Assembly: GCA_033286805.1 (NCBI GenBank) | Contig: GCA_033286805.1_4727.1 | DNA from: a phage | DNA: 64,000 nucleotides | Strand: one strand, 5' to 3' | In this document: positions 6,498-53,920 of the stretch, piece after piece | Layout: each line of letters starts with the position of its first letter | Numbering within the stretch: position 1 is the stretch's first letter | Notes under the pieces: model-generated | Database searches by the model: none | Seen by the model: the letters and a program-made list of their open reading frames with translations, nothing else | What the model was told of the DNA's origin: nothing | Made by a program: the position numbers and the translations under genes

Positions 6498-6521
6498 GAA
6501 TGAAATCTCGCTGGCTTACTT

Positions 6522-6545
6522 CACTTAAGTAATATAGCCGTGAAA
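6522..6545 (-). promoter_or_regulatory. conserved 24-bp promoter-like box, copy a
   Basis: Plus reading CACTTAAGTAATATAGCCGTGAAA; minus reading TTTCACGGCTATATTACTTAAGTG; 25 nt upstream of ATG of 5841-6497(-). Confidence 0.55.
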
Positions 6546-14040: not shown

Positions 14041-15129
14041 ATGAGCGACCTGGCAACAGACAATCGCACAAAAGGGAGTCAGCTAGCTCCAGACAACAAC
14101 GTAAGCGTTTTCCGTATCTTTGCCTTGGGTACTGTTGCTGCCGACTTTTCCAATAAAAGTCTGGAGGAAGATCCTAACCAAACGCTGGAGGTCTTTCTTG
14201 ATGAGATGATGTCAGGCGCTGATGGGAAAGTTGAAGCGGCGGGAAGCGTTAAAGAAGTCAGTGCAACAGACGCTCAAGGAAACAGCTATACGGCGAAAGC
14301 GGCAACAACAACCAGCGTACAGTGTTACTGGTTACCCTTCGGCAGTAACCGGATGACAGCACCTAACTTGAGGAAAGGTCAGCGTGTGGTGGTTTGGCGT
14401 ACCGCCGATGAAGAACAGCTCTACTGGCAACCCAAAGGAGGGGATAGCGAGCTGATGACCATGGAATCGGTTATCCTCACCGTCAGCGCACGTCCTAGCG
14501 CTAAGAAGGACCGTAAATCGATTTCAACGGAAGACTGCTATTACCTAATGGTTGATACCTTCCTCAAGAAGGCGGTTATCGGCACCAGCGCACAGCTTGG
14601 TGAAGTTACCCAAGTTTACATGGAACTTAATCTGGACGAGGGTTACCTACAGGTTGCGGACAGCGTCCATCAAAATCTGCTGTTACTCCATTTCGTTGAA
14701 CATATGCTGCGTTATCAAAACCAGGATGACAGCATCATCGACGTGACAAAAAAGAACATCACATTCCAGTGCGAGGATACGCTCAAAGCAATCGCTAAGA
14801 ACGATATCCGAATGAAAGCAAAAAACATTTATACCGAATGTGAGAACTTCGAGCGTACCAGCAAAACAGAAAGCGTTACGAGTCAGAATGTTTCTTTGAA
14901 GTGTGATCGTTACACCGCGCAAGTATCAGGACAGACCATGTTTAAATGTCCGAATACGGTATTCACTGGGGCTGTAAGCTTCACAGGTGAAGACGGAAAC
15001 ACGATGACGTTGAATGGGAACTTCATACACGTCGCAGGCTCTTGGCGTTCACCAACCGGAACAAACGTATACACCCACGATCACGGCGGTGTAGACCGTG
15101 GCAGCGGTCGTACAGATCCGTTCCAATAA
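14041..15129 (+). CDS. hypothetical protein (362 aa)
   Basis: ATG 14041 with AGGAG SD 8 nt upstream; followed by A-tract and hairpin 15150-15183. Confidence 0.6.
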   Translation: MSDLATDNRTKGSQLAPDNNVSVFRIFALGTVAADFSNKSLEEDPNQTLEVFLDEMMSGADGKVEAAGSVKEVSATDAQGNSYTAKAATTTSVQCYWLPFGSNRMTAPNLRKGQRVVVWRTADEEQLYWQPKGGDSELMTMESVILTVSARPSAKKDRKSISTEDCYYLMVDTFLKKAVIGTSAQLGEVTQVYMELNLDEGYLQVADSVHQNLLLLHFVEHMLRYQNQDDSIIDVTKKNITFQCEDTLKAIAKNDIRMKAKNIYTECENFERTSKTESVTSQNVSLKCDRYTAQVSGQTMFKCPNTVFTGAVSFTGEDGNTMTLNGNFIHVAGSWRSPTGTNVYTHDHGGVDRGSGRTDPFQ

Positions 15130-15149
15130 AAAAAAGAAATGCTATACAA

Positions 15150-15183
15150 CCTCCTTCCCTAGCCGTCAAGGCCGGGGAAGGAG
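15150..15183. terminator. CCTCC/GGAGG palindromic hairpin (H3, variant loop)
   Basis: cctccttccc ... gggaaggagg 10-bp stem with inner gcc/ggc stem; A8 tract upstream, T-rich downstream; convergent junction 14041-15129(+)/15200-15589(-). Confidence 0.7.
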
Positions 15184-15199
15184 GATTATAGTTTATTTA

Positions 15200-15589
15200 T
15201 TAACGCGTTGCATTCTGGATGATTTCTTTTCCGATCTTAACCAAAGCGGGTATCTGTACAGCGGTTGCGCCTCGATGACGAAACGCGGTCGTTAACGCGG
15301 TATCGATACTCACCGCACGTCCGTGAAGACGATCGAAATAGACTTGAGTGATTGCGGTAGCGTAATCCTTTCGCTGTTTCTTGGTTTGGCTCAACAGCGC
15401 CGCACTATGACTAACGATGAAGTAAGCGATTAAGAAGAACGCCGCTGACCGCGAACCAGGTAGAAAACCTTGTCGCTTAGGGAGCATCTCACAATCGCGA
15501 ACACTATTATCGTTCGCCAGCTCTTCCATATCAACACAGCATAATTTTGCATAGGTGTGGAGATAGTGGGTAAAAGTTGAATTTAACAT
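15200..15589 (-). CDS. hypothetical protein
   Basis: ATG 15589 with GAGGAAAG SD; last ORF of minus block ending at hairpin 15150-15183. Confidence 0.45.
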   Translation of the reverse strand: MLNSTFTHYLHTYAKLCCVDMEELANDNSVRDCEMLPKRQGFLPGSRSAAFFLIAYFIVSHSAALLSQTKKQRKDYATAITQVYFDRLHGRAVSIDTALTTAFRHRGATAVQIPALVKIGKEIIQNATR

Positions 15590-15695
15590 TTTTCTTTCCT
15601 CGATTACAATGAGTTCAATGTATAGCTTAAACGTCACAGAACGACGTATAACGGTTTGTTTTAATTTCTAATGGGTTTCCTTATCTAAGATTGAA

Positions 15696-16058
15696 TTAAA
15701 GCGCTCTGAAGAGTTCTGTAGCGTTCTCGTCACGTAAACAGGCTTCGTTCAACAATTCAGCTAACAGCTTCGACCGAACTTCAACAAATGTCCTGAGGCG
15801 ATGCTCCCATTCTAAACGGATAGTGTACGTATTATCCAGGTTTTTGTAATCAACGACAGATACCGAGCAGCGGGGTTCACGTTTGTTCACAGCACTCCAA
15901 ACATCACGGATAACCGTCACGCCTTTCTTGGTGCATGTAAACGTTAAAATACAGCGGTTATTCGCAGCTTCTTCACGGACGCCAACAAATTCACTTCGTA
16001 ACGATGAGACTTTGATCAGTCGGTCAATGGCGAGCGATAAACCGATACGTTGTTGCAT
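15696..16058 (-). CDS. small protein, tandem paralog family member
   Basis: Shares motif NRCILTFTCTKKG with next gene (MRCVRLTFVCTTLGK); AGAGGGGA SD before ATG. Confidence 0.5.
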   Translation of the reverse strand: MQQRIGLSLAIDRLIKVSSLRSEFVGVREEAANNRCILTFTCTKKGVTVIRDVWSAVNKREPRCSVSVVDYKNLDNTYTIRLEWEHRLRTFVEVRSKLLAELLNEACLRDENATELFRAL

Positions 16059-18080: not shown

Positions 18081-18371
18081 TTAACTCCCTCTGTGGTGCG
18101 AAAACAAAACATCTAACTGTTCCCGTTGTTCTTTTAAGCATGCAGGAAGCTGGTCTTCCCGTACCGTTCCGATTTCCAACGTGATGTACCAACGTTGTTC
18201 TGAGGCCTGCCATTGAAAACTGCTCTGTAACCGCAGGATGTTAGGATCACGTACCTTGTTTGCACTGTAACGGTTGAACCAATCCAGGTATTCTGCTTTC
18301 CCTTCCTCGTCGGCAACGTAACGCTGCACGCTGTTCTTCCCTTTGTTCTCGTATCCCGTTGCACGTATCAT
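18081..18371 (-). CDS. hypothetical protein
   Basis: Start set at ATG 18371 overlapping upstream stop (ATGA coupling). Confidence 0.45.
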   Translation of the reverse strand: MIRATGYENKGKNSVQRYVADEEGKAEYLDWFNRYSANKVRDPNILRLQSSFQWQASEQRWYITLEIGTVREDQLPACLKEQREQLDVLFSHHRGS

Positions 18372-19150
18372 GCGAACGTTTCTCCTGTAATGTGTTGTGG
18401 GCGTTGTAGCATGGTAACATCCCATTGTACGATCCGGCTCCGGCTTACCAGCATCATGACGGATTCATCATCAAGCCCTGGTTGCGCAACCGGCAACCAA
18501 CGTTCGTTAAGCACCTTCGCTTCAACGCGTTTCTTGCGGGGATTGTAACGCACCTCGCTGACCCAAGCGAATCCAAGCGGATGCACAACCCGTGGATAAT
18601 ACATGCGAAGCAATTGATGCATTTGATCCATTGCCTCCAAGCTCGCATCCGCCAGGTAAGGTTTCACCATGGCAAGCTTTTTGGTGTAATACGTTCCAAC
18701 GGTATGGTTCGCCCACCCAGGAAGCGCGTGATGGAATCCTACCTGTAATTGTGTATTGCCGTTCACCTTCAGCCAACCGTATTGTCCCGCCGCACGTCCC
18801 TCGTCAGTATCGATCCATGTAAGTATATCGATGAACGCACGATCGGCGATCTCGATGCGTTCCACCCGTTCATCCAACGCACCACGTACCACGAATCCGC
18901 TCGCGCTCAGCCGTGCAGGATGCTGGCTACGATGTGCGTACCAATTCTTGTTGCCGGTAAGCAGGTAAGGATACAAGTGCGCACCACGCCAAACAACCTT
19001 TCCGTTCGTCCCGTCGACGCAACGTACACGCATCCCAGCCTGACCGCTGCTGTAGCATGCTACCCTCACGCATTCGTTTTGAACATCGCTCGGTAACGCC
19101 AGGTATTCATCTCCAGTAAACATGGTATCAAAAATCAATGCTTCTTTCAT
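18368..19150 (-). CDS. hypothetical protein (260 aa)
   Basis: First ORF downstream of promoter box 19234-19257. Confidence 0.55.
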   Translation of the reverse strand: MKEALIFDTMFTGDEYLALPSDVQNECVRVACYSSGQAGMRVRCVDGTNGKVVWRGAHLYPYLLTGNKNWYAHRSQHPARLSASGFVVRGALDERVERIEIADRAFIDILTWIDTDEGRAAGQYGWLKVNGNTQLQVGFHHALPGWANHTVGTYYTKKLAMVKPYLADASLEAMDQMHQLLRMYYPRVVHPLGFAWVSEVRYNPRKKRVEAKVLNERWLPVAQPGLDDESVMMLVSRSRIVQWDVTMLQRPQHITGETFA

Positions 19151-19233
19151 CTAAAAAGATCCTCTGTTTTTCACGTTAATTAAACAACGTATTGATTTCT
19201 ATTTGACACAATACGAACATTGTACGTATCTAT

Positions 19234-19257
19234 CACTTAGGTAATATAGTCGTGAAA
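19234..19257 (-). promoter_or_regulatory. conserved 24-bp promoter-like box, copy b
   Basis: CACTTAGGTAATATAGTCGTGAAA; 84 nt upstream of ATG of 18368-19150(-). Confidence 0.55.
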
Positions 19258-19370
19258 GGATTTGCATTAAAGCAAGGGTTTTGTTTTTTAAGAAGGGATG
19301 GATTTAGAAGAGGTGTTTCAAGGAAGGTAAACGAGGATAGGTATTTTGATTTAAGTAAGTAAGTAAGATG

Positions 19371-19516
19371 TTATCTGTATTTGTTAAAAGTGTATTGTCT
19401 AAGTTATCTTGTTTATCTTAGGTTATGTCTTATTGTTTAATCGTTTTATCTTTGTATGTTTAAGTTGTTTTATTTATCTTGTTTGTTTATTTAAAAGTAA
19501 GTTAATAAGCTTATCT
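19371..19516. repeat. six dispersed TTATCT(T) copies in AT-rich non-coding region, plus (AAGT)4 microsatellite at 19353-19368
   Basis: TTATCT at 19371, 19404, 19414, 19446, 19484, 19511. Confidence 0.6.
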
Positions 19517-19531
19517 TCAAAACAATGGATA

Positions 19532-19564
19532 ACATGTGTTTACCACCTTAACGGTAACACATGT
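19532..19564. repeat. inverted repeat ACATGTGTT / AACACATGT (9-bp stem, 15-nt spacer)
   Basis: Perfect reverse complements read directly. Confidence 0.6.
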
Positions 19565-19612
19565 CATCTGTGCATTACACTCCGCTATCACTTCGTTACA
19601 TGCTTATATGTT

Positions 19613-19800
19613 GGATAACTCAAAAAACATTTGTGATACTCTTCTTCACGTTGTTCATCAGAGTATCTCGTCTATACTCATTGCATTCGTATACGACATA
19701 ACCGTTATACGCTAACGCTACGCTTATAGCTTGATAACTCTAAGGATAAAAACATAAACTCGCTTCGCTCGTTTAGTTTTTCTTTTTCTTAGAGTTATCC
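19613..19800. repeat. GGATAACTC boxes: direct at 19613-19621 and 19732-19740, inverted at 19792-19800; 13-bp inverted repeat GATAACTCTAAGG / CTTAGAGTTATCC
   Basis: Exact 13-bp inverted repeat at 19733-19745 and 19788-19800; third box 120 bp upstream. Confidence 0.6.
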
Positions 19801-19963
19801 TGTTGCTCGTCTCTAAAGGACTTCGCTCCTCCCCCGTCCCCCGAAGGGGCCGAGGTCGTGGAAATTTTACTTTCCAAATACATTTACAACATCTGTAAAC
19901 TTTTACTCCAGGTACTTAATCTTATCATTAGAAATTATAAAAGAGAATAAACACAAACATAAA

Positions 19964-19995
19964 CCTTCCTCCAACCCAACAGGGAAGGAGGAAGG
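19964..19995 (-). terminator. CCTCC/GGAGG palindromic hairpin (H5)
   Basis: ccttcctcc-aa-ccc-aaca-ggg-aa-ggaggaagg, 17 nt downstream of stop of 20012-20905 gene. Confidence 0.7.
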
Positions 19996-20011
19996 GAGAG
20001 ATTAATTAAAA

Positions 20012-20905
20012 TTAATCAGCGACGTTATAACCGAATACTGCTTTACCGTAGGTGTGAGTACCGTTAGCTAACGACAGCACCAGCACATGGTTGTACGTAG
20101 CGTTAACGCCCTTGTCAGTAGACTCGGTGGTAGCACCGTTATAGACAAAGGTAGCCGTTTGCAGATTGGCTTTCAGTTCATTGATGATATCATCACTTAC
20201 GCCGGTCTGCTCTTTGATCAGGGTGGTCAGGTTACCTGCTAAGCTTGCATCGATATTTACTTCGTTGCCAGTAATAGCTTGTAAACCTGGAGCGTAAGTA
20301 CTGAAGTCTAACGGATAGGTTAACAGACGTGCTGACGTTTTGGTACCATCGCCTTCATCAACGTAGGTTAAGTTACCCAGGTTGGTAACCTTGATGATGT
20401 TAGCCAGATCCAGCGTGGTGTTATAAACTTTAACTTGAACAGAGCCATACCACGCCAACGAATCTTCTTTGGCTTCCAGGGTGATCGTCTGGATACCTGA
20501 CTGATCAAAGGTAACCTGAGTAGCTAACGTTTCGGCTTTGATGTCTTTCGTTTTATCCAGGAACTTCTCACCGGAAGGCGTGATCATACCGTAGCGTTGA
20601 GCTACAAGGTCAACCACATCACCGATGGTGGTGTTCGCCTCAACGTTAACACGTACAGCGATCTTCTGGAACCACTTAGCCAGATCCAGACGATGGTAGG
20701 TGACATCGCGGTTATTGAAGTAAGGGGTACCTTCACCAGGACTAAGTGTTAAAGTTGCTTCTGGAGCAGAAGGATTCTTTTCTTTAAGGACGTATTTAAG
20801 GTCGGTGTATTTAAAGTTGGCACCAGTGTCGGCGTTGAGCTGGTTAATCTCATCAACGATAAGTTGCCAAGGTGTTTTTAAAGTAAGCGATACTTGAGCT
20901 GTCAT
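20012..20905 (-). CDS. abundant virion protein, paralog family member A
   Basis: Strong codon bias; shares YxNRxDL / LAWYGSV-type blocks with 21048, 31966, 33788, 34650 genes; followed by hairpin 19964-19995. Confidence 0.7.
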   Translation of the reverse strand: MTAQVSLTLKTPWQLIVDEINQLNADTGANFKYTDLKYVLKEKNPSAPEATLTLSPGEGTPYFNNRDVTYHRLDLAKWFQKIAVRVNVEANTTIGDVVDLVAQRYGMITPSGEKFLDKTKDIKAETLATQVTFDQSGIQTITLEAKEDSLAWYGSVQVKVYNTTLDLANIIKVTNLGNLTYVDEGDGTKTSARLLTYPLDFSTYAPGLQAITGNEVNIDASLAGNLTTLIKEQTGVSDDIINELKANLQTATFVYNGATTESTDKGVNATYNHVLVLSLANGTHTYGKAVFGYNVAD

Positions 20906-21047
20906 TTTCTACCTCTATGGTTGTTACATCACTCTCAAAAGATGTAAGTGTTTACAGAAATAAGTATATTTTATATTAAATGTGAATAATATGGAGAACG
21001 ACTCCGAATCTCCTTTTCGACCATCAAAAATCAGAGGACACACAATC

Positions 21048-22649: not shown

Positions 22650-24698
22650 TCAAATACCTTTGGTTCCCTTCACGTGATGTGCGATTTCTTCAACCATTGC
22701 ACGCAGGGCACGAAGCTGTTGGTCGTGTTCGTACCAACCGCCTAACAGAACCCCGCTATACACCATGGTGTCAAGACTTAACAGTCCTTTATCTGATACG
22801 TTGATCATTTCAGGGAACTGTTCTTGAACACGCTGTGCGATAACACCGATCTTCTCGACATCAGGATCGTAGTTGTGACGGAAACGGGCAAGCCCGCTGC
22901 GCGCCATTTCACGTAAACGTTCACTGAGAGATTCCGGATGATCTTTCAGATAACGAATGTCGTGTTTACTGCGTTCATCCGAGCGGATGTATGCGTTAGG
23001 AACATCGATGTTACTGTTGAAGTACAGCGCACTACCACCACCTGCAGAGTTCCCCCAATAGAAGCGTGTGATCTCACCGCCGCCATTCTCCGTGATGATG
23101 ACATGTTTACCTAAACGCGTACCACCATTACCATCAACGAAGACCAGTTTGTTTCCGCTGTAAGAACCCCAGAACAAGCGTGTATCGATGATGTGTGTTG
23201 CGGCGAGACGGGCGTTACGTGGTGTAGAATACACGGTGTTAACATCTTGCTGTGCATGCGCATCGGAAGCGATCCCGTAGTTCTGTACGTTACCCAACCC
23301 TACCTGCGCTTTTGTAACAGCATGAGGGTTATCCCGACGGTTGGCGTGAGCGTTAACCAGATCACCCGCTAATTTCTGAATTGCCCAGTTGGTAGACTGT
23401 GGTGTCATGTAACGGTTCGTTGCAGAACCACCTTGCGCTTCAGCTTGGTTAGCGGTTGGGTAGTTCTCAACACTTCCTAACCCTACTTGTGCTTTAGACA
23501 CTTGGTGTGGGTTATTCTTATCGGCGATGTGTGCATTAAGCGGAACTAACGCAAAGGTCTCAATGGACGCTTTGGTTGTGTTCGGTGCCATTAATCGGTT
23601 AGCTGCAACACCAGCACGCGCTTCTTCTTCAGAAGCCATTGGGTAGTCTTGCACATTCCCTAACCCAACCTGTGCTTTGGTCACCCTGTGTGGGTTGTTA
23701 TAATCGGCTTTATGCGCATTAAGCGGAATCAATGCGAACTGTTCAATCGATGCAACGGTACGTAGCGGCGTCATGAAACGGTTGTTCGCTGTTCCGGCTT
23801 TCGCCTCATCATCCGAAGCGGTCGGGAAGTTATCAACGTTCCCAAGGTTAACCTGTGCTTTGGTGACACTGTGTGGGTTATCCCGACGGTTAGCATGCGC
23901 GTCGACTAGATCGCCCGCCAGTTTAGCAATCGCCCAGCCAACCGTTTGTGCGGTCATGTAACGGTCAGGTGCGGTACCGGCTTCTGCCTCCGCCTTGTTT
24001 GCGGTAGGATAGTTCTGTACGTTACCTAGTCCGACTTGGGCTTTTGTTACTTCGTGTGGGTTATCGGTACGGTTAGCGTGAGCGTAATGCAGATCGGTTA
24101 GATCTTTATCCGCCGCTTGCATGTCTTTGCGTAGCTGATCGATTGCCGCCCAGAGACGGTTATCGGACGCAGCATCACCGATGAGTATTGCGGCTTTTAA
24201 CGAATAGATCGCTAAGCAAAGATGTTCGGTACCGTAAATAGCACTAACGTGGTGGATGTGTGGTTCAGGCGGATAGAGTTCCGGTTTGTTCTTGATGTCA
24301 TCCCAGTTGATCGGACGATCGTCAAGTTTGAGTTCTTCGATAGCCTGATATAACGCGTCAATAAGACTTACGTAAACACCACCGATGATACGATAGTCGT
24401 TAATTAACGTCCCCTCGATATCATCGTTGATAATGGCGATGGCTGCACAGATTTCTTTACCCGCGTAAAGCGTAGCGTCCTGATACAAGAAGATAGGTTT
24501 GTAGTCCACGCCTCGCACCAGTGTCTTACCGGTAAGCTTTTCAGTGATGACCAGACTTTCGGTGAAGAACGGTCCGCCATCAAGGGCGTAACATTTATTC
24601 TCGGTTCGTGGAACGGTATGTTCTTCGCCAACGATGTGGTTGCTGGCGAGTGTACCGGTCCAGTCCTCGGGGTACTTCAGGGTAATTGGTGTCGACAT
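22650..24698 (-). CDS. tail fibre with C-terminal S74-type intramolecular chaperone domain
   Basis: Five ~57-aa repeats (H.ANRRDNPH.VTKAQVGLGNV.NY...EA..G...NRYMTP); C-terminal SDERSKHDI motif (SDxRxK) typical of autoproteolytic fibre chaperone domains. Confidence 0.85.
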   Translation of the reverse strand: MSTPITLKYPEDWTGTLASNHIVGEEHTVPRTENKCYALDGGPFFTESLVITEKLTGKTLVRGVDYKPIFLYQDATLYAGKEICAAIAIINDDIEGTLINDYRIIGGVYVSLIDALYQAIEELKLDDRPINWDDIKNKPELYPPEPHIHHVSAIYGTEHLCLAIYSLKAAILIGDAASDNRLWAAIDQLRKDMQAADKDLTDLHYAHANRTDNPHEVTKAQVGLGNVQNYPTANKAEAEAGTAPDRYMTAQTVGWAIAKLAGDLVDAHANRRDNPHSVTKAQVNLGNVDNFPTASDDEAKAGTANNRFMTPLRTVASIEQFALIPLNAHKADYNNPHRVTKAQVGLGNVQDYPMASEEEARAGVAANRLMAPNTTKASIETFALVPLNAHIADKNNPHQVSKAQVGLGSVENYPTANQAEAQGGSATNRYMTPQSTNWAIQKLAGDLVNAHANRRDNPHAVTKAQVGLGNVQNYGIASDAHAQQDVNTVYSTPRNARLAATHIIDTRLFWGSYSGNKLVFVDGNGGTRLGKHVIITENGGGEITRFYWGNSAGGGSALYFNSNIDVPNAYIRSDERSKHDIRYLKDHPESLSERLREMARSGLARFRHNYDPDVEKIGVIAQRVQEQFPEMINVSDKGLLSLDTMVYSGVLLGGWYEHDQQLRALRAMVEEIAHHVKGTKGI
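23214..24086 (-). repeat. coding tandem repeats (5 x ~57 aa, NPH-VTKAQVGLGNV core) in fibre gene
   Basis: Repeat units read from translation of 22650-24698. Confidence 0.8.
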
Positions 24699-24711
24699 AA
24701 CCTGGAGGTCC

Positions 24712-27306
24712 TTATAACGTGACTGTACCTAATTTGGTTGTCTTATTGAGATTAATGACAGAGATCTGGGTATCGCTGGTCGTAATCGTTCCGATATTAA
24801 CGCGCTGTCCTTTATCATCTTCTTGCTTGTAGATGGTTAACTCCAGCTCTAACTGGTCGCCATTAGGAACAACGGAAACGTACCATGTTTTATTACCTGG
24901 TGAACTATTATAGTCTTTTAGGTTATAATGGCCTTTAGGTAAGGTCATGACCTTACCGGCAAACAAGCAAGTGATGTCTTCGTTGATGTAGATATCGTAA
25001 CCGGAAGCAGCAACGACCGTAGAAACCATGTAGACATGTTTGACGGTACCTGCGAGGTATTCGGCTACGCTTGGTCCGTATGCTCTGAATACCTGTCCAC
25101 CATTGGATAAACGGTACGCTTCCCCAAGGTCGACGTACCCCAGACCCCATACCGGATGGACGTTGTAACGACGTCCGCTGCTGGCCAAATACTCATAAAG
25201 GTCATCTACCGATAACCCAACCCACGCACCACTGGCGTTCTTAGCACCACGGAATTGAAAATCGTTTGCGTTTCCTGGAGTAGCAACGCGCACGGACATC
25301 GCCCCGGCGATTAACCAACCATCAGCGCATTTACGATACCCTAATGGTCCCCACGCCCCCAGAGTGTTGTCAATGTTATTGATTTGGTCCCGAAGCGTGT
25401 AAGTTACCGTTGTGACGACCCCCGTTACGGTAATGTTCCCTTCCCGAGCGCTGGTCGTCACTTCAGACGTCATGATAGCCGCCTTCCTGGAGACAGGATC
25501 GTACACCGATATGAACATCAAGCAGGGGGCCCCTGTGGACGCCGGAGGAACCACGATAGAGCCGCGTATAACGGAGTATCTCTCAAGCTTCGGCGACGTG
25601 TAGGTATCCCAACAAAGTTTGGCCGCTCTGTCGAGTTCTGCCTGCGTGATGCTTATCGATGCCCCCTTTAAGGCTAACGTATCAGGGTCGACCTCAACCC
25701 TGCTGCTTAATCTCCCTTCCTGTAGCCAACTGCCAGTCACTATCGTCTGGTCGTCGCTCATGTGAATTGTCGCGAAACGTTCGCTCACTGAACCGCCTAC
25801 GTGGACGCGACTGGTTGGCGGGAATCCCATCACATCGACCACGCTGTTCTTATAGCGATAACTCAAATCCCAATCAGCGGTTATTAACCGCTTTTCGAAA
25901 TTGCTCTGACCCCCTGGGATGCGGGATAAGACATAGACCTTGTTCTTCGCCGTGAAGCCAACGAAGCCGTGTGGGCCACAGGACCCAACAACGCGGTCCT
26001 TGATGTTAATCCAGTTCCCCACCTCGTACGCGGATATTGGGGTGAGTTTTGCAAGTTCGTCGAAGACATTACCAGCGTAGTCACCAATGCGATACGATCG
26101 AACCATCGGCGAGGCCAGGTTATCATTCACACAGCTGGTAACCAGACCGTCCTCGCGAATGACCATGTTCCCGGTAAGGTTGGCCCCACCCCATGCCCAG
26201 AATCCGTCTTTATAATCACGGTCACGAGTTGACATCGTACAAGGGCCACGAAAGGACACCGAACCATCGGAGTTCACTTGTAATGACGGCGTTCCAGCAT
26301 TGGGACTTAATGTCCATTGCTTCGTATCCAGGTTCAAATCGACGTACCAGATCGTTGTCCCCTGGTCGGCGATATTCACGGTACTGTTAGTGTACCATGC
26401 CGTCGTGCAGTAGATTCGCGCAATGTTACCTTTTACAACAGCGTAATTTCTAATACCCGCACGAATAGGGACAAGCGTCGTTAATTGACTAGGATACGCT
26501 GTATGGTTTAACACTTCCCAGAAAAGAATATGGTCGAGGTTGGTTTTCGTCGTTCCCTCAAAAATCTTTCCACTAAACCCGGTTTCTTTGGTGAACTGTA
26601 CAGCCGCACCATTTTTAATGTCCGATAACATACAGGTATGTACATCGAGCCCGTTTTTCCCTTCATACGCCCACCAGACTAACAGGTACACTTTGTTTTT
26701 GTAGACGAACGTACTACAGCGCGCCATGCTGTCGGTAATACCCTCTACCGACCCGGTACACATGGCGGCGACATGCTTCTCTACGTTGAATGTGCCGTTA
26801 GTCAGAACGATGTAGGGCTGTGTGTTCTCGTCGTTTGCGTCCATCGCGACACCCATCATCACGCCGTGGTTATGACACCAGACCGATTGTGGGATTTTAG
26901 GTAGTGCTGTAGGCCTATACTGGCGACTGGTACCTATGGCGGTATCGAGCAGCCCTTCACCATTGTTTTTACAGATAGCGTAATACACCCCGTTTTTCAT
27001 GCTGTTGGATGCCGAGCGAAGGATGGAAACACTCCCGTCTGCTTCCTGACAGATTCCGTAGGTACGACGTTCGGTCATGGCTATCGCGCCATCAGCTGAC
27101 CCTTCGATGGCGAGAGGGAAGTAACTTTGATCGCCAATTTGTTCGATATCGGTTACGTCAATATCAATGTACTTTTCCATCTCGGTGTTGAACTCTGCGG
27201 TGCTGTACGCGCCGAGATCGCCAGCCTTTAACCCTGTTGGATTGCTTCGACTAGCGATACGCTCAGTAACGCTGGTCACCAGTTCGCTAAATTTTTTCAT
27301 TGCCAT
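24712..27306 (-). CDS. putative receptor-binding protein / tail fibre or spike (864 aa)
   Basis: Inside fibre cassette; N-terminus MAMKKFSEL...ASRSNP shares anchor motif with the two small downstream proteins. Confidence 0.6.
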   Translation of the reverse strand: MAMKKFSELVTSVTERIASRSNPTGLKAGDLGAYSTAEFNTEMEKYIDIDVTDIEQIGDQSYFPLAIEGSADGAIAMTERRTYGICQEADGSVSILRSASNSMKNGVYYAICKNNGEGLLDTAIGTSRQYRPTALPKIPQSVWCHNHGVMMGVAMDANDENTQPYIVLTNGTFNVEKHVAAMCTGSVEGITDSMARCSTFVYKNKVYLLVWWAYEGKNGLDVHTCMLSDIKNGAAVQFTKETGFSGKIFEGTTKTNLDHILFWEVLNHTAYPSQLTTLVPIRAGIRNYAVVKGNIARIYCTTAWYTNSTVNIADQGTTIWYVDLNLDTKQWTLSPNAGTPSLQVNSDGSVSFRGPCTMSTRDRDYKDGFWAWGGANLTGNMVIREDGLVTSCVNDNLASPMVRSYRIGDYAGNVFDELAKLTPISAYEVGNWINIKDRVVGSCGPHGFVGFTAKNKVYVLSRIPGGQSNFEKRLITADWDLSYRYKNSVVDVMGFPPTSRVHVGGSVSERFATIHMSDDQTIVTGSWLQEGRLSSRVEVDPDTLALKGASISITQAELDRAAKLCWDTYTSPKLERYSVIRGSIVVPPASTGAPCLMFISVYDPVSRKAAIMTSEVTTSAREGNITVTGVVTTVTYTLRDQINNIDNTLGAWGPLGYRKCADGWLIAGAMSVRVATPGNANDFQFRGAKNASGAWVGLSVDDLYEYLASSGRRYNVHPVWGLGYVDLGEAYRLSNGGQVFRAYGPSVAEYLAGTVKHVYMVSTVVAASGYDIYINEDITCLFAGKVMTLPKGHYNLKDYNSSPGNKTWYVSVVPNGDQLELELTIYKQEDDKGQRVNIGTITTSDTQISVINLNKTTKLGTVTL

Positions 27307-27318
27307 TATTCACCTCAG

Positions 27319-27804
27319 TTAAATCGGCGAATCAGGTAATTGGCCATCGACAATCTCGGTAGTGGCCACTTTACGTGTCGCAGCAAGATGTGCTGTGCCC
27401 TGAACTTTGTTCCAGGTACCGATACGCATCACGTTTTTATAGCTGCTGTTACTGTCGCTCAATGTGTAAACAAAACCGTTATCCGTGACAGCAAGATAGA
27501 TCCAACCGGTTGATGCGCTAACACCAGAAACATCCAACGTGGTCGCGGGCACCGTTCCTGTTATCGTGTTGTATTCCGCTTCACCTTGGCCGATGCTGAT
27601 CCTCCCGTTGTTGTAGCTGGCTGCTGGAATTATTTTATTTCGGCTGAAGAAAAGGAACGGAAGATAACGTTGTGTGACAAGAGGTGTAAGTTTAGGAGCC
27701 ACTTCTGTCTTGGCGTACACGTTTGTCTGCGTCGTTGTTACTGAATGAGGATTCTTCTTGGCCAGGTAGGCTCCCCATTCAGAAAGCAATGTCGATAACT
27801 TCAT
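27319..27804 (-). CDS. small tail-fibre-associated protein
   Basis: N-terminus MKLSTLLSEWGAYLAKKNPHSVTTTQ carries a single copy of the fibre repeat core. Confidence 0.5.
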   Translation of the reverse strand: MKLSTLLSEWGAYLAKKNPHSVTTTQTNVYAKTEVAPKLTPLVTQRYLPFLFFSRNKIIPAASYNNGRISIGQGEAEYNTITGTVPATTLDVSGVSASTGWIYLAVTDNGFVYTLSDSNSSYKNVMRIGTWNKVQGTAHLAATRKVATTEIVDGQLPDSPI

Positions 27805-30580: not shown

Positions 30581-30633
30581 GTGTTAACAGCGGTAAAATA
30601 TTACTGTAACTATAAAATAAGGGGGCCTCTCCC

Positions 30634-31914
30634 ATGTATACATTGGTAAAAACTTACGGATTACCCGTAGGTTCTGGCACGGCCTGGACAGCGCTTGAGG
30701 CGGGTGAAAGTGTCCTGAGTACGTTGTTCTCAACGTATCAAAAACTCAAGATCCAGGTCCATGAAAGCTATGCTGACCAGCAACAAGTTATTGATCTGTA
30801 CGCGTTCCAATCCGAGCTTCAAAACAGCAGTGATACGCTCAATGCGTGGCTGAAGGCGAAATCGGACGCACATACTAACCTCCGTGGACAGCCAGGCGAG
30901 CTGTCGATTAAAACCCACAAGCTTTATTGTCACGACGTTATTACAGTAGGCTTTCTCCCTAAAGTCGGTAATAGCGGCTATCATCCGAGCAACGCGATCC
31001 CTGAGTCGGAACGCACTGATATCCTGTTGACGAAAGCGAATACGAACTACGAAAATATCGGTAAGCATTGCTTGTTTACCGTAGGTGGTTATGTTCATCC
31101 TCACGTTTACGGTAAAGACGTCGGTGTCTATATCCAGGGCGGGTTCAAGACGGCACAGCGTAGCCAAGAAAACGATATCGGCATGATTGATTTTAGCCGT
31201 ATCGGGAGTTTGGAAATCCATGCCATCACAGAAGAGATGATTGCTGATTCCACGAAGCTCTTGCCGTATAAGGACGAGATGTACTTGCGGTTACCGCGCA
31301 AGGTCGCCGAAGATGAAACCGTCGCGCTGGTGTTCGGGGGATATTTACATCTTCTTGACGATTGTTACACGATCGTTAGTGACACGACAGCAAAAATAAA
31401 CTGCATTAACATGTTTCTTTATGAAAGATACTTCCGTTCCCGCAAATACCTTGATCTAACGTCTCTTGGTATTCTGTTGAACGAAGAAGACCCGCAGTCC
31501 GATATTGTTGCCAATCGTTTATTGTCCGATAAAGCATTAAAAGCGTGGGTGACGCATCCTTGCAGTTTCTGGGTGTATATCAAAGCAACATCGATTCAGG
31601 TTACGCAAGAACCTTTACCACGAAGTGGTGTACCAGGACAATATTTCTTAGGTAAGAAACCGGAAGGACTGATTCGAGCCGATCTTGGTGAGTTACCGGC
31701 TTACGTGCAGACCTATGAAAAACCGTTATGGGTACTTCACTCGCGCTGGGGACTTCGTAAGAACATGTTGTTTGAAAACACATTGTACAAGCACACCCGC
31801 GTTAAGCGGCTTAACGATACGCCTTATCTTCACCAGGTCTGGTTGGAAACGCACGCGACGTTGCAGACAGTACACAAGCTCGAATTGATCGATTCCAGTC
31901 AGAAAAACAAATAA
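30634..31914 (+). CDS. hypothetical protein (426 aa)
   Basis: ATG 30634 with AAGGGGG SD; plus-strand island between fibre cassette and paralog genes; ends before hairpin 31925-31956. Confidence 0.6.
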   Translation: MYTLVKTYGLPVGSGTAWTALEAGESVLSTLFSTYQKLKIQVHESYADQQQVIDLYAFQSELQNSSDTLNAWLKAKSDAHTNLRGQPGELSIKTHKLYCHDVITVGFLPKVGNSGYHPSNAIPESERTDILLTKANTNYENIGKHCLFTVGGYVHPHVYGKDVGVYIQGGFKTAQRSQENDIGMIDFSRIGSLEIHAITEEMIADSTKLLPYKDEMYLRLPRKVAEDETVALVFGGYLHLLDDCYTIVSDTTAKINCINMFLYERYFRSRKYLDLTSLGILLNEEDPQSDIVANRLLSDKALKAWVTHPCSFWVYIKATSIQVTQEPLPRSGVPGQYFLGKKPEGLIRADLGELPAYVQTYEKPLWVLHSRWGLRKNMLFENTLYKHTRVKRLNDTPYLHQVWLETHATLQTVHKLELIDSSQKNK

Positions 31915-43992: not shown

Positions 43993-45792
43993 TCAATCGA
44001 TTATGTCACGATCGTTAATTTCTACAATTTCTTCATCGAATCGACCGACGTCTTTCTTCAAGCCTGCATTGGTTGCTGCAACGTCATTTGCAATTTGTGG
44101 GGTAATGATTAACCGACCACGTTCGTCGATAGGTGCGTACATACTGAACTTTTGACGTCCGGTTGGTTCGGAGTGTGGAAGATTCAGATAGCTTGCACAG
44201 AACGGGATGGAACCACTAACCAAACGACTCTCGTCAGCCAATGCAGCACCGCCTGCGTTTTGGCTCTGGAGAACAACATGCGTGCTCACTTTGAACAGCA
44301 TGCAATCACCCGGTGACTGAATCGATGTTGCCACTTTCTCACGTTTATCACGATTGCTCTGGATATTGAGAATCGCTTCCGTTGCAACTTGATTTCGCAA
44401 CGCCTTCTGCACATCGCGATTGGTCATCTCTTTACGGTTGTTCTGTCGTTTGCCACGTTCTGTGGTTTTAAGATGGAACCCCAGTTTAAAGATGCTTTTA
44501 CGCACATCCTCCATGACATATTCCAACACCATCAATTCCTTACCGAACATCGTCGTGGTGTCAACACGACTCATTTCGATAGTAACATTGTCAATCAGAT
44601 ACGCCATAAATTCGTAGAAGTCGTCGCAAGGAATATTTTCCTGTTTGAACTTCTTCTGTTGAATTTCGTCAACGTAAAGATCGAGACTGTCGATGTGGTG
44701 GTTTACATCACGCAACAAACGCGCATCCGCATTGTTGTTATTAAAGATAATCAAACCGAGTAATGTACGCCAATGGTCTGGCGCATTTGCGAACTCCTCA
44801 ACCGGATAGTCTTCCGGAAAACGATCGTAATAACGGTCGATGAGATATAGGAACGCACCGACAAGGCCAAGAACAATACGTTCCGTGCCTCCACGTCTTA
44901 CAGCAATTTGAATATCAGGATGTTTGTAACGTACAGCGCTAGCGCTACGGCTTTTACCGCTTTTGCTGATACTAAAGCCTTTAGGAATAACCCCCATGGT
45001 GCGATAGATTACCCATTGGTCACGCGGAAAATCACGTTCAGCAAGGTTCCGTCCGGTTACGGCTTCGACACCTGCAAAACGTCGGAAACACTCACCCACC
45101 CCGTACTTCGCAAAGAGATAGTGACCCAGTGTGGTTACGCTGGTGTGGTTGATGTTGTCACCGTTCACTTTACTTTGTTTGGTAAGATGATAGATTTGCG
45201 ACCAGGGTAATGACAGGTAATGACGATAATCGATACCGGTCGGTGTATCATTGCTCAGGAACTGATACGGTGTACGTTTAACCGTGATTTTATCACGCGG
45301 AAGCATGATGAACGCCATGTCTTTCGTGTAACTGATTACGGGGTCAGCGAGTACCGCACTGAGAATGAAGTTCGCACCACGTAGACGCATTTTACCACCC
45401 TGACCTACCGCGGGTAATAGGAGAGGATGTCGGATAATGCAGTAGTCCTTTCCGGGTTCACGACGGTCGCCTGATTCCATCGCGCCGTACCAGCGGAATT
45501 CCAGCATCACCATAAACACATCGGAAGGCGCAAGGTCGAAGGTCAGCTTACCGCTATCCTTCCCTTTGGTTTTCTTTCCTCCGCTTAAGTAGTGGAACTG
45601 TTCGCGGGCCATACAGCGACGCAGGCCATGATACACCAGATCCTTAGGTAAACTATCTTTGCTGTTCCGCCAAAGACGATCAACATAGGACTCAACATCT
45701 TGCATCTTATCGACGACGATGTTGCGTGCTATCTTCTCGTTCATCTTCGGTGCAAGCTCAGCGACAGCTTTGCAGAATCTAGGATCCATCAC
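43993..45792 (-). CDS. hypothetical protein (599 aa)
   Basis: Long ORF on dominant strand; no motif recognised. Confidence 0.6.
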   Translation of the reverse strand: MMDPRFCKAVAELAPKMNEKIARNIVVDKMQDVESYVDRLWRNSKDSLPKDLVYHGLRRCMAREQFHYLSGGKKTKGKDSGKLTFDLAPSDVFMVMLEFRWYGAMESGDRREPGKDYCIIRHPLLLPAVGQGGKMRLRGANFILSAVLADPVISYTKDMAFIMLPRDKITVKRTPYQFLSNDTPTGIDYRHYLSLPWSQIYHLTKQSKVNGDNINHTSVTTLGHYLFAKYGVGECFRRFAGVEAVTGRNLAERDFPRDQWVIYRTMGVIPKGFSISKSGKSRSASAVRYKHPDIQIAVRRGGTERIVLGLVGAFLYLIDRYYDRFPEDYPVEEFANAPDHWRTLLGLIIFNNNNADARLLRDVNHHIDSLDLYVDEIQQKKFKQENIPCDDFYEFMAYLIDNVTIEMSRVDTTTMFGKELMVLEYVMEDVRKSIFKLGFHLKTTERGKRQNNRKEMTNRDVQKALRNQVATEAILNIQSNRDKREKVATSIQSPGDCMLFKVSTHVVLQSQNAGGAALADESRLVSGSIPFCASYLNLPHSEPTGRQKFSMYAPIDERGRLIITPQIANDVAATNAGLKKDVGRFDEEIVEINDRDIID

Positions 45793-49825: not shown

Positions 49826-49974
49826 TGAAAGTATCCTTTACAGAATTAACTTATATAAGTCGGTCGATAGACCATAGCGTACACGCGTGCATGCGCCACT
49901 ATAGTATCAGTAAACACTTACCGTTGTTTAGGCTGTGATACAACACTAAAAATGCCGCATAACTTTTCCCTACG

Positions 49975-50634: not shown

Positions 50635-52245
50635 ATGGACCCAAAACAGATAGCCATTAAGATTATTACGTTACTGTTTCGTAATGCACAATTGAACCAT
50701 CCCGATCCCAGTACGATCGAACATGTTAAATCCGTCTTAGATAAAGTCGAACCCCCGAAAAACCATCTCGCTACAGACGTAGATAGAGAGGTTTTCAGCA
50801 ACCTGATGAACACCATTCATTGGATGCTGGAACAACCGTTATCGGAACCTTTCGATAAACAACAGTTGTTACAAAGGATACGTTTAGATTGCCTTGAACA
50901 AAGCAATCTTTACGAGATTCTTGCCGACGGACTGTACGATATCGAAGACGACGCTCATATCAGTAAGGTCTGTTCGCTCTATTACAACGAATTACGTAAT
51001 CTGATTACCCGTCGTCGTGTTTTCGAAACCTTTAGAAACACGTACATGGATATCAGTAACGGGCGACTTGGGGATAAAGAATTTTTCGATGCGATGGCGA
51101 ATCTGAAATTATCGCTAGACAGTATCGAAATGGATACCGAAAATCCCGAAGAGATGGCGTGTATGATTGACGGCTTTATCGCTGACAGCGAAGACGATAT
51201 CGAGAAAGTCGAACGTATGTTCGTCAAAGCGATGGAACGTAACAGTCCTGAAGGTGGATTTGTAACCGGCTGGCAAGGCTTTAATAAAATGTTGGGGTCG
51301 GTCGGTGTTTTACGTCGCGGTACCTTAGGACTGATTGGTGCAATGCAGCACCGGAACAAGTCAGGCGTGTTGTTAAAACTGTTCACACATCTGGCATTGT
51401 ACAACAAACCCCATTTCTTTTTCCCGGAGCGAGCAAAGAAAGCATTACTGATTCATTTGTCGACAGAAAACGAAGTGGAAGAAAACACGCTTCAGATATA
51501 CAAGAACATGCGAGAACAGGAAACAGGCGAATATGTCGATATTCGTAAGATTGACCCTCGCGAGGCATCACGTTATGTGTTGAAGGTGTTCAACGATGCG
51601 GGTTTCTCTGTTTGTATGCGTCGTGTTGATGGGATGAGTTACAAACAACTCGCTAATCTCATCGACCATTTCGAACGCATGGGTTATGAGGTCATGGCGT
51701 TGTTCATCGACTATCTGAAAATGTTCTCATCGGAAGGGCTGGATAGAAATGGACCGACCGGCGCATGGCTCCAAGAACTCTTTAACAAAGTCCGTAACCT
51801 CTGCAGCGTTAAACGTATTTTAGGTATGACCGTACACCAGCTGTCATCCGATGCGAAGATGCGTGCACGTGATGGCAACGATGAAGAGTTCGTTGACCAA
51901 GTCGCAGGTTTAAGTTACTGGGATGGTTGTAAAGGGATTGACCGTGAGATTGACCTCGAAGTGATTGTTGATATCGTTAAGGAACCGGGCAAACGTCAAA
52001 GCTGGCAGGTCTTTGCGTTAGGGAAAGACCGTCAACCGGATAACGGTTCAACGAAACCTGAAGACAAACATTTCGCGATGCCATTCCAAACCATCGGGAT
52101 GCTTCCTGATGATTACGGTAAGAAAGCAGTATATTGCCGCAAGGTTGGCGGACAACCTGTCTCCGAGGGAGGTAAAGGTCCGTGGAACAAGTTCGATGAA
52201 AACGCAGCACCGAGTAATGAATTACAATTTGATTTAGAATTTTAA
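50635..52245 (+). CDS. hypothetical protein (536 aa)
   Basis: ATG 50635 with AAGGA SD at 8 nt; followed by A9 tract and hairpin 52271-52302. Confidence 0.6.
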   Translation: MDPKQIAIKIITLLFRNAQLNHPDPSTIEHVKSVLDKVEPPKNHLATDVDREVFSNLMNTIHWMLEQPLSEPFDKQQLLQRIRLDCLEQSNLYEILADGLYDIEDDAHISKVCSLYYNELRNLITRRRVFETFRNTYMDISNGRLGDKEFFDAMANLKLSLDSIEMDTENPEEMACMIDGFIADSEDDIEKVERMFVKAMERNSPEGGFVTGWQGFNKMLGSVGVLRRGTLGLIGAMQHRNKSGVLLKLFTHLALYNKPHFFFPERAKKALLIHLSTENEVEENTLQIYKNMREQETGEYVDIRKIDPREASRYVLKVFNDAGFSVCMRRVDGMSYKQLANLIDHFERMGYEVMALFIDYLKMFSSEGLDRNGPTGAWLQELFNKVRNLCSVKRILGMTVHQLSSDAKMRARDGNDEEFVDQVAGLSYWDGCKGIDREIDLEVIVDIVKEPGKRQSWQVFALGKDRQPDNGSTKPEDKHFAMPFQTIGMLPDDYGKKAVYCRKVGGQPVSEGGKGPWNKFDENAAPSNELQFDLEF

Positions 52246-53693: not shown

Positions 53694-53896
53694 CGTATTT
53701 TACCTTTCTATGTTAGGTGGATTGCGGATAGAAGAATCAATGCATAGATTGATCGTTCTATGTTAGAAATTATTGCCGAACTGGTTATGGTTATAACGCG
53801 TGTTTTCGTATGCTGACGGGTCGCGTATTAATAAGGTCATGACTGTATCCTCGATTATTAAGAGAAATTTACAACGATAACAGTAACCGCTGTTAT

Positions 53897-53920
53897 CACC
53901 TAGGTAATGTAGTCGCGAAA
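53897..53920 (-). promoter_or_regulatory. conserved 24-bp promoter-like box, copy d
   Basis: CACCTAGGTAATGTAGTCGCGAAA; between hairpin H11 and minus block starting at 53693. Confidence 0.55.

Follow-up and report, generated by a model that had tools for sequence, protein, structure and literature searches.

A predicted structured non-coding RNA gene in the longest intergenic gap of a Goslar-like jumbo phage

We looked at the gap at 19151-20011 of the window, by which we mean the whole 64,000-nt stretch of phage contig GCA_033286805.1_4727.1. At a probability of about 0.55, this gap holds a new, independently transcribed and clade-restricted structured non-coding RNA (ncRNA) gene of ~255 nt, whose product would be a multivalent protein-binding RNA. 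For its core we observed conservation, a strand-specific fold, covariation, a promoter-associated box and a single-copy distribution restricted to one phage clade. The phage from which the window comes is closely related to Escherichia phage vB_EcoM_Goslar (NC_048170), an E. coli jumbo phage that forms a nucleus and belongs to the Chimalliviridae; the two are 93.5% identical over the gap region, 94.6% over 8-32 kb and 96.2% over the 47 kb aligned. The gap measures 861 bp and is bounded by two open reading frames (ORFs) on the minus strand, the gp021 homologue at 18368-19150 and the homologue of gp022, a DUF7941 virion structural protein, at 20012-20905. As the first-pass annotation of this DNA had proposed (~860 bp), no other ORF-free stretch of the window is as long, and the gap is AT-rich, with a GC content of 0.364 over 19001-20000 against ~0.47 elsewhere. 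Goslar is the E. coli model of nucleus-forming jumbo phages, and a search of its annotation over the homologous gap (14972-15825, 854 bp) returned no entry; a description of the core element was likewise absent from the literature searched. The gap is made of four minus-strand parts: the gp022 terminator with a TATG, the ~300-bp core, an AT-rich spacer, and an early-promoter box with the gp021 leader. It would thereby be a composite of a terminator, an ncRNA gene, a spacer bearing an AGATAA array, and the early promoter and leader of gp021.

Conservation and folding of the core

Goslar-like genomes were gathered from IMG/VR, from Logan, ENA and NCBI assemblies, which were reached via gp022 homologues at 77-94% identity, and from a metagenome scan. 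Counting the window, 21 genomes carried the interval, in two main haplotypes (A and B). Thirteen related genomes were compared with the window region by region, 15 sequences entered the structure alignment of the core, and AGATAA copies were counted in 14 relatives. Identity to the window was 75-92% over the gp022 coding sequence, 61-100% over the gp022 terminator, 92-100% over the core (tabled as 19628-19954), 74-96% with 17-132 gap columns over the spacer (19260-19627), and 54-94% over the gp021 coding sequence. The conserved span itself covers ~300 bp, 19622-19925: conservation starts near 19925, ~30 nt upstream of a palindromic box, GTAAAAGTTTAC, and breaks off exactly where a T run lies (19622-19627). 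In the four closest genomes, ~370 bp were 100% identical and the flanks differed. The same island of ~300 bp was found in 20 independent related genomes belonging to both haplotypes.

Read on the minus strand, the 255 nt from about 19876 to 19622 folded into nine helices with a minimum free energy (MFE) of -79.8 kcal/mol (z = -5.72; none of the 200 shuffles equalled it), and the centroid was nearly equal to the MFE structure. Over a 331-nt stretch, the minus strand reached -88.6 kcal/mol and the plus strand -72.8 kcal/mol, and the AT-rich spacer was found to be unstructured (z = -1.65). When the 83 pairs of the fold were followed through the 15-sequence alignment, 99.8% of cells were paired, compared with 35-52% when the partners were slid. 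Pair 241-247 was AU, GC or GU and pair 242-246 was UA or CG, both covarying; the two compensatory pairs showed changes in 4 and 7 of the 15 sequences, and pairs 30-42, 73-94 and 74-93 changed by wobble only. About 5% of cells were G.U, where the opposite strand would have C.A mismatches. The core therefore has a conserved structure on one strand with covariation, though the events are few.

Every feature that the first-pass annotation had named in the gap was recovered, with minor corrections, and several of them turned out to belong to this fold. Its GC-rich hairpin CCCCCGAAGGGG was confirmed at 19838-19849, where the minus strand reads CCCC-UUCG-GGGG; it is the cUUCGg-tetraloop part of hairpin H3 (19832-19855), where pair 73-94 and pair 74-93 are each either C-G or U.G, so that pairing is kept on the minus strand only. 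The annotation had also counted three GGATAACTC boxes, among them a perfect 13-bp inverted pair. Two of the boxes are exact, at 19613-19621 on the plus strand and at 19793-19801 (as GAGTTATCC), and what had been taken for the third reads GATAACTC (19733-19740). The inverted pair exists, but its perfect part is 12 bp long (GATAACTCTAAG/CTTAGAGTTATC) and lies inside 20-nt arms that are 85% complementary. This pair, inverted repeat I1, makes the outer stem of a bipartite hairpin, H6/H7 (19733-19799), whose 24 pairs are all invariant. The third GGATAACTC box was considered as an alternative pairing partner and rejected, being degenerate in several relatives with changes that are not compensatory. 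Operator-like roles had been suggested for the inverted repeats; by the comparative data, those of the core are instead stems of a single-stranded minus-strand fold.

The hairpin tips resemble one another. The tip of H7 is UAAAC-GA-GC-GAA-GC-GA-GUUUA, a GCGAAGC mini-hairpin, and hairpin H9 (19670-19697) is built like it. The last two pairs and the triloop of H9 form the only hypervariable spot of the core; the triloop is always G-N-A (GCA, GUA or GAA), and its closing pairs covary. In total, four RC-GNA-GY mini-hairpins were found, at alignment positions ~100, 158, 203 and 240, plus the one cUUCGg loop, and two of the four share the same architecture of a 5-bp stem, tandem G.A, 2 bp and a GNA triloop. 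In haplotype B, two hairpin tips become GCGAAGC, which is the invariant tip of H7. The last hairpin, H10 (GAUACUCU/AGAGUAUC), has 8 invariant pairs and is followed by ACAAAUG and a run of six to nine U, all within 19622-19667. Because conservation collapses right after this run, the 3' end of the RNA is placed there, and H10 with its U run would be the terminator.

Homology searches point to a single-copy element of one clade. At gathering thresholds, none of the 4227 models of Rfam 15 matched in the window, and at E <= 10 over 19000-20100 only two noise matches were obtained (MIR530 and U7); ARAGORN found no tRNA or transfer-messenger RNA (tmRNA) gene in the window. When the interval, and the core by itself, were searched by BLAST against 50,697 phage records, Goslar was the sole match, the rest being chance matches of 22-29 nt; no match came from complete E. 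coli genomes or from plasmids. Scans with 22-mers of the core retrieved three Goslar-like contigs only from the viral collection, seven further Goslar-like contigs and one chance match in GC-rich DNA (L035) from metagenomes, and no match from GTDB genomes. A covariance model of the core (R1) was run on the window, the whole Goslar genome and the sister-clade loci without detecting a further copy, and the core is single-copy in Goslar. Over phage records, IMG/VR, JGI metagenomes and GTDB genomes, the core is thus distributed in the Goslar clade only. In the homologue search, gp022 identity falls straight from 77% to 54%, with no intermediate relatives. In the sister clade (gp022 ~50% identical), the same locus consists of a terminator, ~25 nt and an early-promoter box, without the module, which makes the ~700-bp module specific to the Goslar clade.

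Small RNAs (sRNAs) of the phages phiKZ and 201phi2-1 are intergenic or lie in leaders and are conserved among related phages, for instance sRNA005 upstream of the gp182/gp277 tail gene (PMC11512511; PMC13282480). The predicted core transcript is like them in being non-coding, intergenic, of a chimallivirus and conserved among relatives. The phiKZ and 201phi2-1 sRNAs are, however, Pseudomonas phage RNAs of <250 nt and mostly products of premature termination in 5' untranslated regions, whereas the core RNA would be a stand-alone, multi-helix molecule of ~255 nt with its own promoter-type box, has no sequence or Rfam relation to them and occurs in the Goslar clade only. In being compact, almost all-helical and in carrying several copies of one hairpin-loop motif (here RC-GNA-GY), it is also reminiscent of CsrB/RsmZ, of VA/EBER-type RNAs and of the phi29 pRNA, but the core motif is not GGA and there is no similarity in sequence or model. 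The core RNA would most likely act in trans, as a scaffold or sponge that presents its repeated GNA-triloop hairpins to a protein, and the tip of H9, the only fast-evolving spot, would then be the specificity contact. A base-pairing sRNA is unlikely.

If the prediction is right, a new RNA player would be added to a system in which RNA is made in a protein-walled compartment and sorted out of it, and the box that drives this RNA would be shared with the capsid, tail-sheath and shell genes. Its role could be that of a protein sponge or scaffold, a defence decoy or a replication primer. The prediction can be checked against existing data, as a Goslar RNA-seq time course has been published with gene-level results (bioRxiv 10.1101/2023.09.20.558163).

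Promoter-type boxes around the core

The palindromic box GTAAAAGTTTAC lies at the 5' edge of the core (19895-19906, minus strand) and is invariant in 15/15 aligned sequences. Goslar has four copies of the exact 12-mer where 0.03 are expected, each of them at or beside a gene boundary; the other three copies are upstream of chmA, after the DNA polymerase exon gp068 (upstream of an HNH gene) and at 176.76 kb. The wider family GTAA-N3-W-TTAC has seven sites in the window where 1.3 are expected (19895-19906, 20944-20955, 30593-30604, 30646-30657, 45328-45339, 49910-49921 and 52214-52225). Goslar has 17 such sites and 12 of them are intergenic, in a genome that is 8% non-coding. The intergenic sites are found 41-200 nt upstream of the major head, tail sheath, gp023, gp029/030 and chmA genes. 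From the core box, the next start codon is 746 nt away, and the box therefore faces non-coding sequence.

The middle-promoter motif of phiKZ is AAanTTACc, centred near -24 (PMC4666361), and the GTAAAAGTTTAC box fits it. Upstream of Goslar chmA, the box precedes the early box and is followed by a TATG whose G is 23 nt from the motif centre. This arrangement mirrors the pair of early and middle promoters reported for the shell gene of phiKZ (PMC8244752). GTAA-N3-W-TTAC is thus a candidate middle/late promoter or operator element. Transcription of the core RNA would start 10-25 nt downstream of the GTAAAAGTTTAC box, by the phage non-virion RNA polymerase, which would read promoters of this type inside the phage nucleus, and would stop at the last hairpin and its U run. 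A scan for sigma-70 promoters found none on the minus strand and is uninformative here. A TATAAT at ~19935 was also considered as the promoter and rejected, as it is not conserved in haplotype B.

A start further upstream could also apply. The gp022 terminator hairpin (CCTTCCTCC...GGAGGAAGG; 19964-19995, minus strand; inverted repeat I7) shows compensatory stem changes between haplotypes, and right after it comes a TATG (19958-19961) kept in all relatives. Many of the Goslar terminator hairpins have TTTATGC(Y)G after them instead of a plain T run, at about nine sites that mostly lie 20-75 nt upstream of gene starts. Since the late promoter of phiKZ is 5'-TATG-3' with +1 at the G (PMC4666361), these sites may be combined terminator/promoter cassettes. 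By the same analogy, the TATG at 19958-19961 would be either a terminator tail or a late promoter of the phiKZ type, and the core RNA could start at 19958 instead of downstream of GTAAAAGTTTAC.

The three promoter classes of phiKZ (early, middle and late) are mirrored by the 25-nt early box, the GTAA-N3-W-TTAC box and the TATG that comes after terminators, but the Goslar motifs are longer, one of them is palindromic, and they are predicted from sequence. As by-products, the early box, the palindromic middle/late box and the terminator-TATG cassettes would be useful for phage engineering and for reading transcriptomes. Elsewhere in Goslar, between the convergent genes gp224 and gp223, a GTAAAACTTTAC box is followed by ~150 nt without an annotated gene, a GC-rich hairpin and CTATG (188,955-189,140, plus strand), and this locus may encode a second unannotated small RNA.

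Evidence for and against the non-coding RNA and other explanations

The first-pass annotation had left three readings side by side, namely a replication origin, a regulatory hub and an ncRNA locus. The ncRNA locus agrees with a core that is conserved above its flanks, folds on one strand with compensatory changes and is preceded by a promoter-associated box, and the hub agrees with the presence in the interval of both the gp022 terminator and the early-promoter box of the gp021 operon. The origin, which it had listed first, received no specific support.

A number of points weigh against the ncRNA gene. The core is not the most conserved 300 bp of its surroundings: in the B-haplotype relatives, the coding stretch 24426-24900 is 95-96% identical while the core is at ~92-93%, and runs of perfect identity to Goslar of 300-460 bp occur elsewhere in the window. 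One relative (L016, ENA ERZ926329) combines a B-haplotype gp022 (78% identity to the window) with an A-haplotype gp021 (93%), which places a recombination junction inside the 19150-20011 interval, plausibly in or beside the conserved core. With recombination in the interval, part of the conservation contrast could come from mosaicism. Because of this recombination and of the equally conserved 24426-24900, the contrast is strong but not unique, and a claim of unique ultra-conservation for the core was tempered in view of such coding stretches nearby. Variation in the core is very low, with only seven stem positions that vary; two sequences break one pair, and a single sequence breaks another. 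As the varying positions are few and the structure was derived from the same sequences, covariation support for the fold is modest. H10 is AU-rich and separated by 7 nt from the U run, unlike the usual GC-rich hairpin plus TTTATGC terminators of this phage, and a simple terminator scan made no call there. A minus-strand fold that tolerates G.T fits single-stranded DNA as well as it fits RNA. Finally, the transcription, ends, timing and partner of the core RNA are all deduced from sequence, and its protein-binding mechanism from the repeated GNA triloops and the nearly all-helical fold.

Another reading is a region of no dedicated function, that is, a decaying insertion or spacer whose core was homogenised by recent recombination and whose repeats came from slippage in AT-rich DNA. 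Goslar-like genomes are mosaic, as in L016, long perfect-identity runs and a coding stretch conserved like the core are found nearby, and the module is absent from the sister clade. We nevertheless hold this to be very unlikely, as the same conserved island of ~300 bp is present in 20 independent related genomes of both haplotypes, its borders match the promoter box and the T run, the substitutions that do occur respect the fold, the stability of the fold far exceeds that of shuffles (z = -5.7), and the AGATAA count is maintained through turnover. Missed small protein genes, such as the 36-codon ORF at 19773-19883 on the minus strand, are the least probable content. ORFs of 30-69 codons are present in the interval, but by eye none has a Shine-Dalgarno sequence, and those on the plus strand are broken by indels in relatives. 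The three substitutions in the 36-codon ORF are one synonymous and two non-synonymous (S>P, Q>H), and this ORF overlaps four conserved helices. The first-pass view that no ORF with a plausible ribosome-binding site lies here was borne out, since the interval holds only ORFs of up to 69 amino acids across which indels cut in relatives; no ORF bearing a ribosome-binding site or conserved in frame was found in it.

In the spacer, six same-orientation AGATAA copies form an array on the minus strand (19370-19517; consensus aaCtAAGATAAc/a), which are the six TTATCT copies within 150 bp of the first-pass annotation, recovered between 19371 and 19517. Five of the 18 AAGATAA copies of the window fall within the 114 bp of 19404-19517, all on the minus strand, for 8.9 +/- 3.2 copies expected window-wide. 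The array consensus is aaCtAAGATAA(c/a), with a conserved core of ~8 nt, AAGATAA(C/A). The cluster is unique in the 237-kb Goslar genome, and 4-7 same-orientation copies are kept in 14/14 relatives, against 0.2-0.4 expected, despite ~75% identity and many indels. The homologous 400 bp are the lowest-GC stretch of the Goslar genome (28.7%). The motif is therefore maintained through turnover, but it is short and irregularly spaced, with distances of 9-61 nt (9, 33, 28, 37 and so on).

If the gap were a replication origin, an initiator would bind the AGATAA array as iterons, unwinding would take place in the AT-richest DNA, and the core would be a single-strand priming signal on the minus DNA strand or an R-loop pre-primer RNA. 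The lowest-GC position in the genome and the unique, conserved cluster speak for it. So does the layout of a promoter-like box, a structured transcript and an AT-rich tract, which is that of the transcription-primed type; such origins combine a promoter, a structured transcript and an AT-rich tract. Strand-specific folding with G.T pairs and GCGAAGC tips would suit single-stranded DNA too, and d(GCGAAGC) is an unusually stable DNA mini-hairpin. In PMC13648698, the Goslar replisome is described as needing an RNase H-clamp protein (Rhc), which is also tied to R-loop resolution, and this essential component would agree with an RNA-primed start. Yet iterons are expected to be at least three direct repeats of ~17-22 bp, usually in helical phase, and these repeats are 7-9 nt long and irregular. 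The array zone is the least conserved part of the gap and varies in copy number, and one relative has lost the hairpin that accompanies it. DnaA boxes show no enrichment, with one 1-mismatch site in the interval and 60 sites against 61 expected window-wide. Cumulative GC skew, which had been put forward as a check, shows no inflection at 19-20 kb of the window or near 15 kb of Goslar, a weak test for phages. A recognisable initiator is not adjacent, gp021 having no Pfam, PHROG, PADLOC or PDB match and a low-confidence model, and the sister clade does without the module at this locus. We consider an origin unlikely, in an estimate that includes the version with the RNA as primer.

The likeness to known origins is partial in the same way. 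With ColE1 RNA II and T4 oriF/oriG, the locus would share a promoter, a structured RNA, an AT-rich unwinding region and an RNase H-dependent replisome, but it has neither a skew inflection nor an antisense regulator, and the module is missing in the sister clade. With iteron origins (lambda ori, plasmid oriV, and RSF1010 oriV with its ssi hairpins), it shares direct repeats beside AT-rich DNA and strand-specific hairpins, whereas the Goslar-clade repeats are 7-9 nt, irregular and variable in number, with no recognisable initiator gene adjacent. That the structured RNA and the AGATAA array jointly form the replication origin of Goslar-like nucleus-forming phages is improbable in our view. In this joint arrangement, an RNA made by the phage polymerase in the nucleus would invade the lowest-GC DNA as an R-loop and be trimmed by Rhc to the first primer, and hairpins of the displaced strand together with an AGATAA-binding factor would fix the initiation site. 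No chimallivirus origin is described in the literature searched, and this one would be the first. Over the first ~100 kb of Goslar the cumulative skew stays flat; it then declines steadily, reaches its minimum at ~214 kb and is level beyond. Skew gives no candidates for an origin or terminus other than the slope changes at ~105 and ~214 kb, which could equally reflect gene-class composition.

At the DNA level, the interval could also act purely in cis on the early gp021 promoter. A phage regulator or a nucleoid-type protein that sets the timing of early transcription would then bind the AGATAA/GATAAC motifs and the inverted repeats, and the core would be protein-bound DNA. The interval does end in a well-supported early-promoter box, the array is directional and conserved, and a conserved pyrimidine-rich block lies between the two. 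By annotation, Goslar encodes small putative DNA-binding proteins such as gp119, with a SANT/Myb domain, and some Myb-type domains bind GATAA-type sites. However, the other eight early boxes of Goslar come ~30 nt after a terminator with neither array nor core upstream, and the distances to the box (115-285 bp for the array, ~365-690 bp for the core) are far for a promoter operator. The wobble and compensatory substitutions and the difference in energy between strands favour single-strand folding over recognition of a duplex. We regard cis-regulation of this kind as quite unlikely and keep the ncRNA gene as the preferred reading of the core.

Spacer, early promoter and gp021 operon

Other elements of the spacer were found between the core and the early box. 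At 19528-19568 (minus strand), a hairpin (ACATGTGTT...) is followed by a U-rich stretch. It had been listed as an inverted repeat ACATGTGTT/AACACATGT with a 9-bp stem; the repeat is there, but its length was understated, the arms of inverted repeat I6 (19528-19540 and 19556-19568) being 13 nt long and 92% complementary. In relatives the stem is kept and the loop varies, and as the whole element is deleted in IMGVR_UViG_3300011560, it is dispensable. The reported (AAGT)4 microsatellite was recovered by Tandem Repeats Finder in another register, as (TAAG)x4.0 at 19352-19367, with a copy number that varies in relatives. The pyrimidine-rich block (CCUAUCCUCGUUUACCUUCCUUGAAAC...CCCUUCUU; 19290-19350, minus strand) is a second island of conservation inside the variable spacer, ~40-115 nt upstream of the early box; haplotype B has an insertion of ~26 nt there with further CCUUCC/GAUAAC units. 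An excess of GATAAC/GTTATC (88 against 36 expected from dinucleotide shuffles) was discarded as a signal, being due to pentamer content (maximal-order Markov z = -1.1); window-wide, it is comparable to that of many codon-driven hexamers.

The box which the first-pass annotation had called promoter box b was retrieved at the end of the gap as a 25-nt box of the early-promoter type (TTTCACGACTATATTACCTAAGTGA, 19233-19257, minus strand). This box, TTTCRCGRCTAYATTACYTARGTGA, has three copies in the window (6521-6545, 19233-19257 and 53896-53920, all minus) where 0 are expected. In Goslar there are nine, all on the minus strand, and one of them lies 65-89 nt upstream of the chmA start codon. We call it early on the basis of chmA and of the phiKZ consensus TATATTAC. 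The published transcription start site sequence of chmA begins 91 nt upstream of the start codon. The 25-nt box is probably the early promoter of Goslar-like phages, for the virion RNA polymerase, and the copy at 19233-19257 is most likely that of the gp021 operon. It is followed by the 5' leader of this operon, which has a GAGGA ribosome-binding site (19151-19232, minus strand). Elsewhere in Goslar, the usual layout is a hairpin, TATGC, ~30 nt and the early box, and against this layout the core and the array stand out as inserted between two standard signals.

Considered as a possible initiator, the gp021 product matched no Pfam, PHROG, PADLOC or PDB entry, and its AlphaFold2 model (predicted local distance difference test, pLDDT, 57.7) is too poor for a fold search. 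The early genes downstream of it showed no Pfam, PHROG, PADLOC or PDB similarity either. Goslar-like phages are the only ones in which homologues of gp021 were found, members of the family being 40-92% identical, and the set of genes downstream (to ~15200) is replaced in several relatives. Together, gp021 and these genes look like a fast-evolving accessory early cassette.

Several assemblies break within the interval. The Logan contigs L011, L015, L017, L019 and L021 end 34-47 bp past the gp022 stop, and contigs L024 and L025 end ~775 bp past it. These breaks are likely caused by the terminator hairpin and the promoter box, both of which are repeated elsewhere in the genome, for example as an 86% copy at Goslar 27737-27777 and as a near-identical B-type copy near 134.2 kb.

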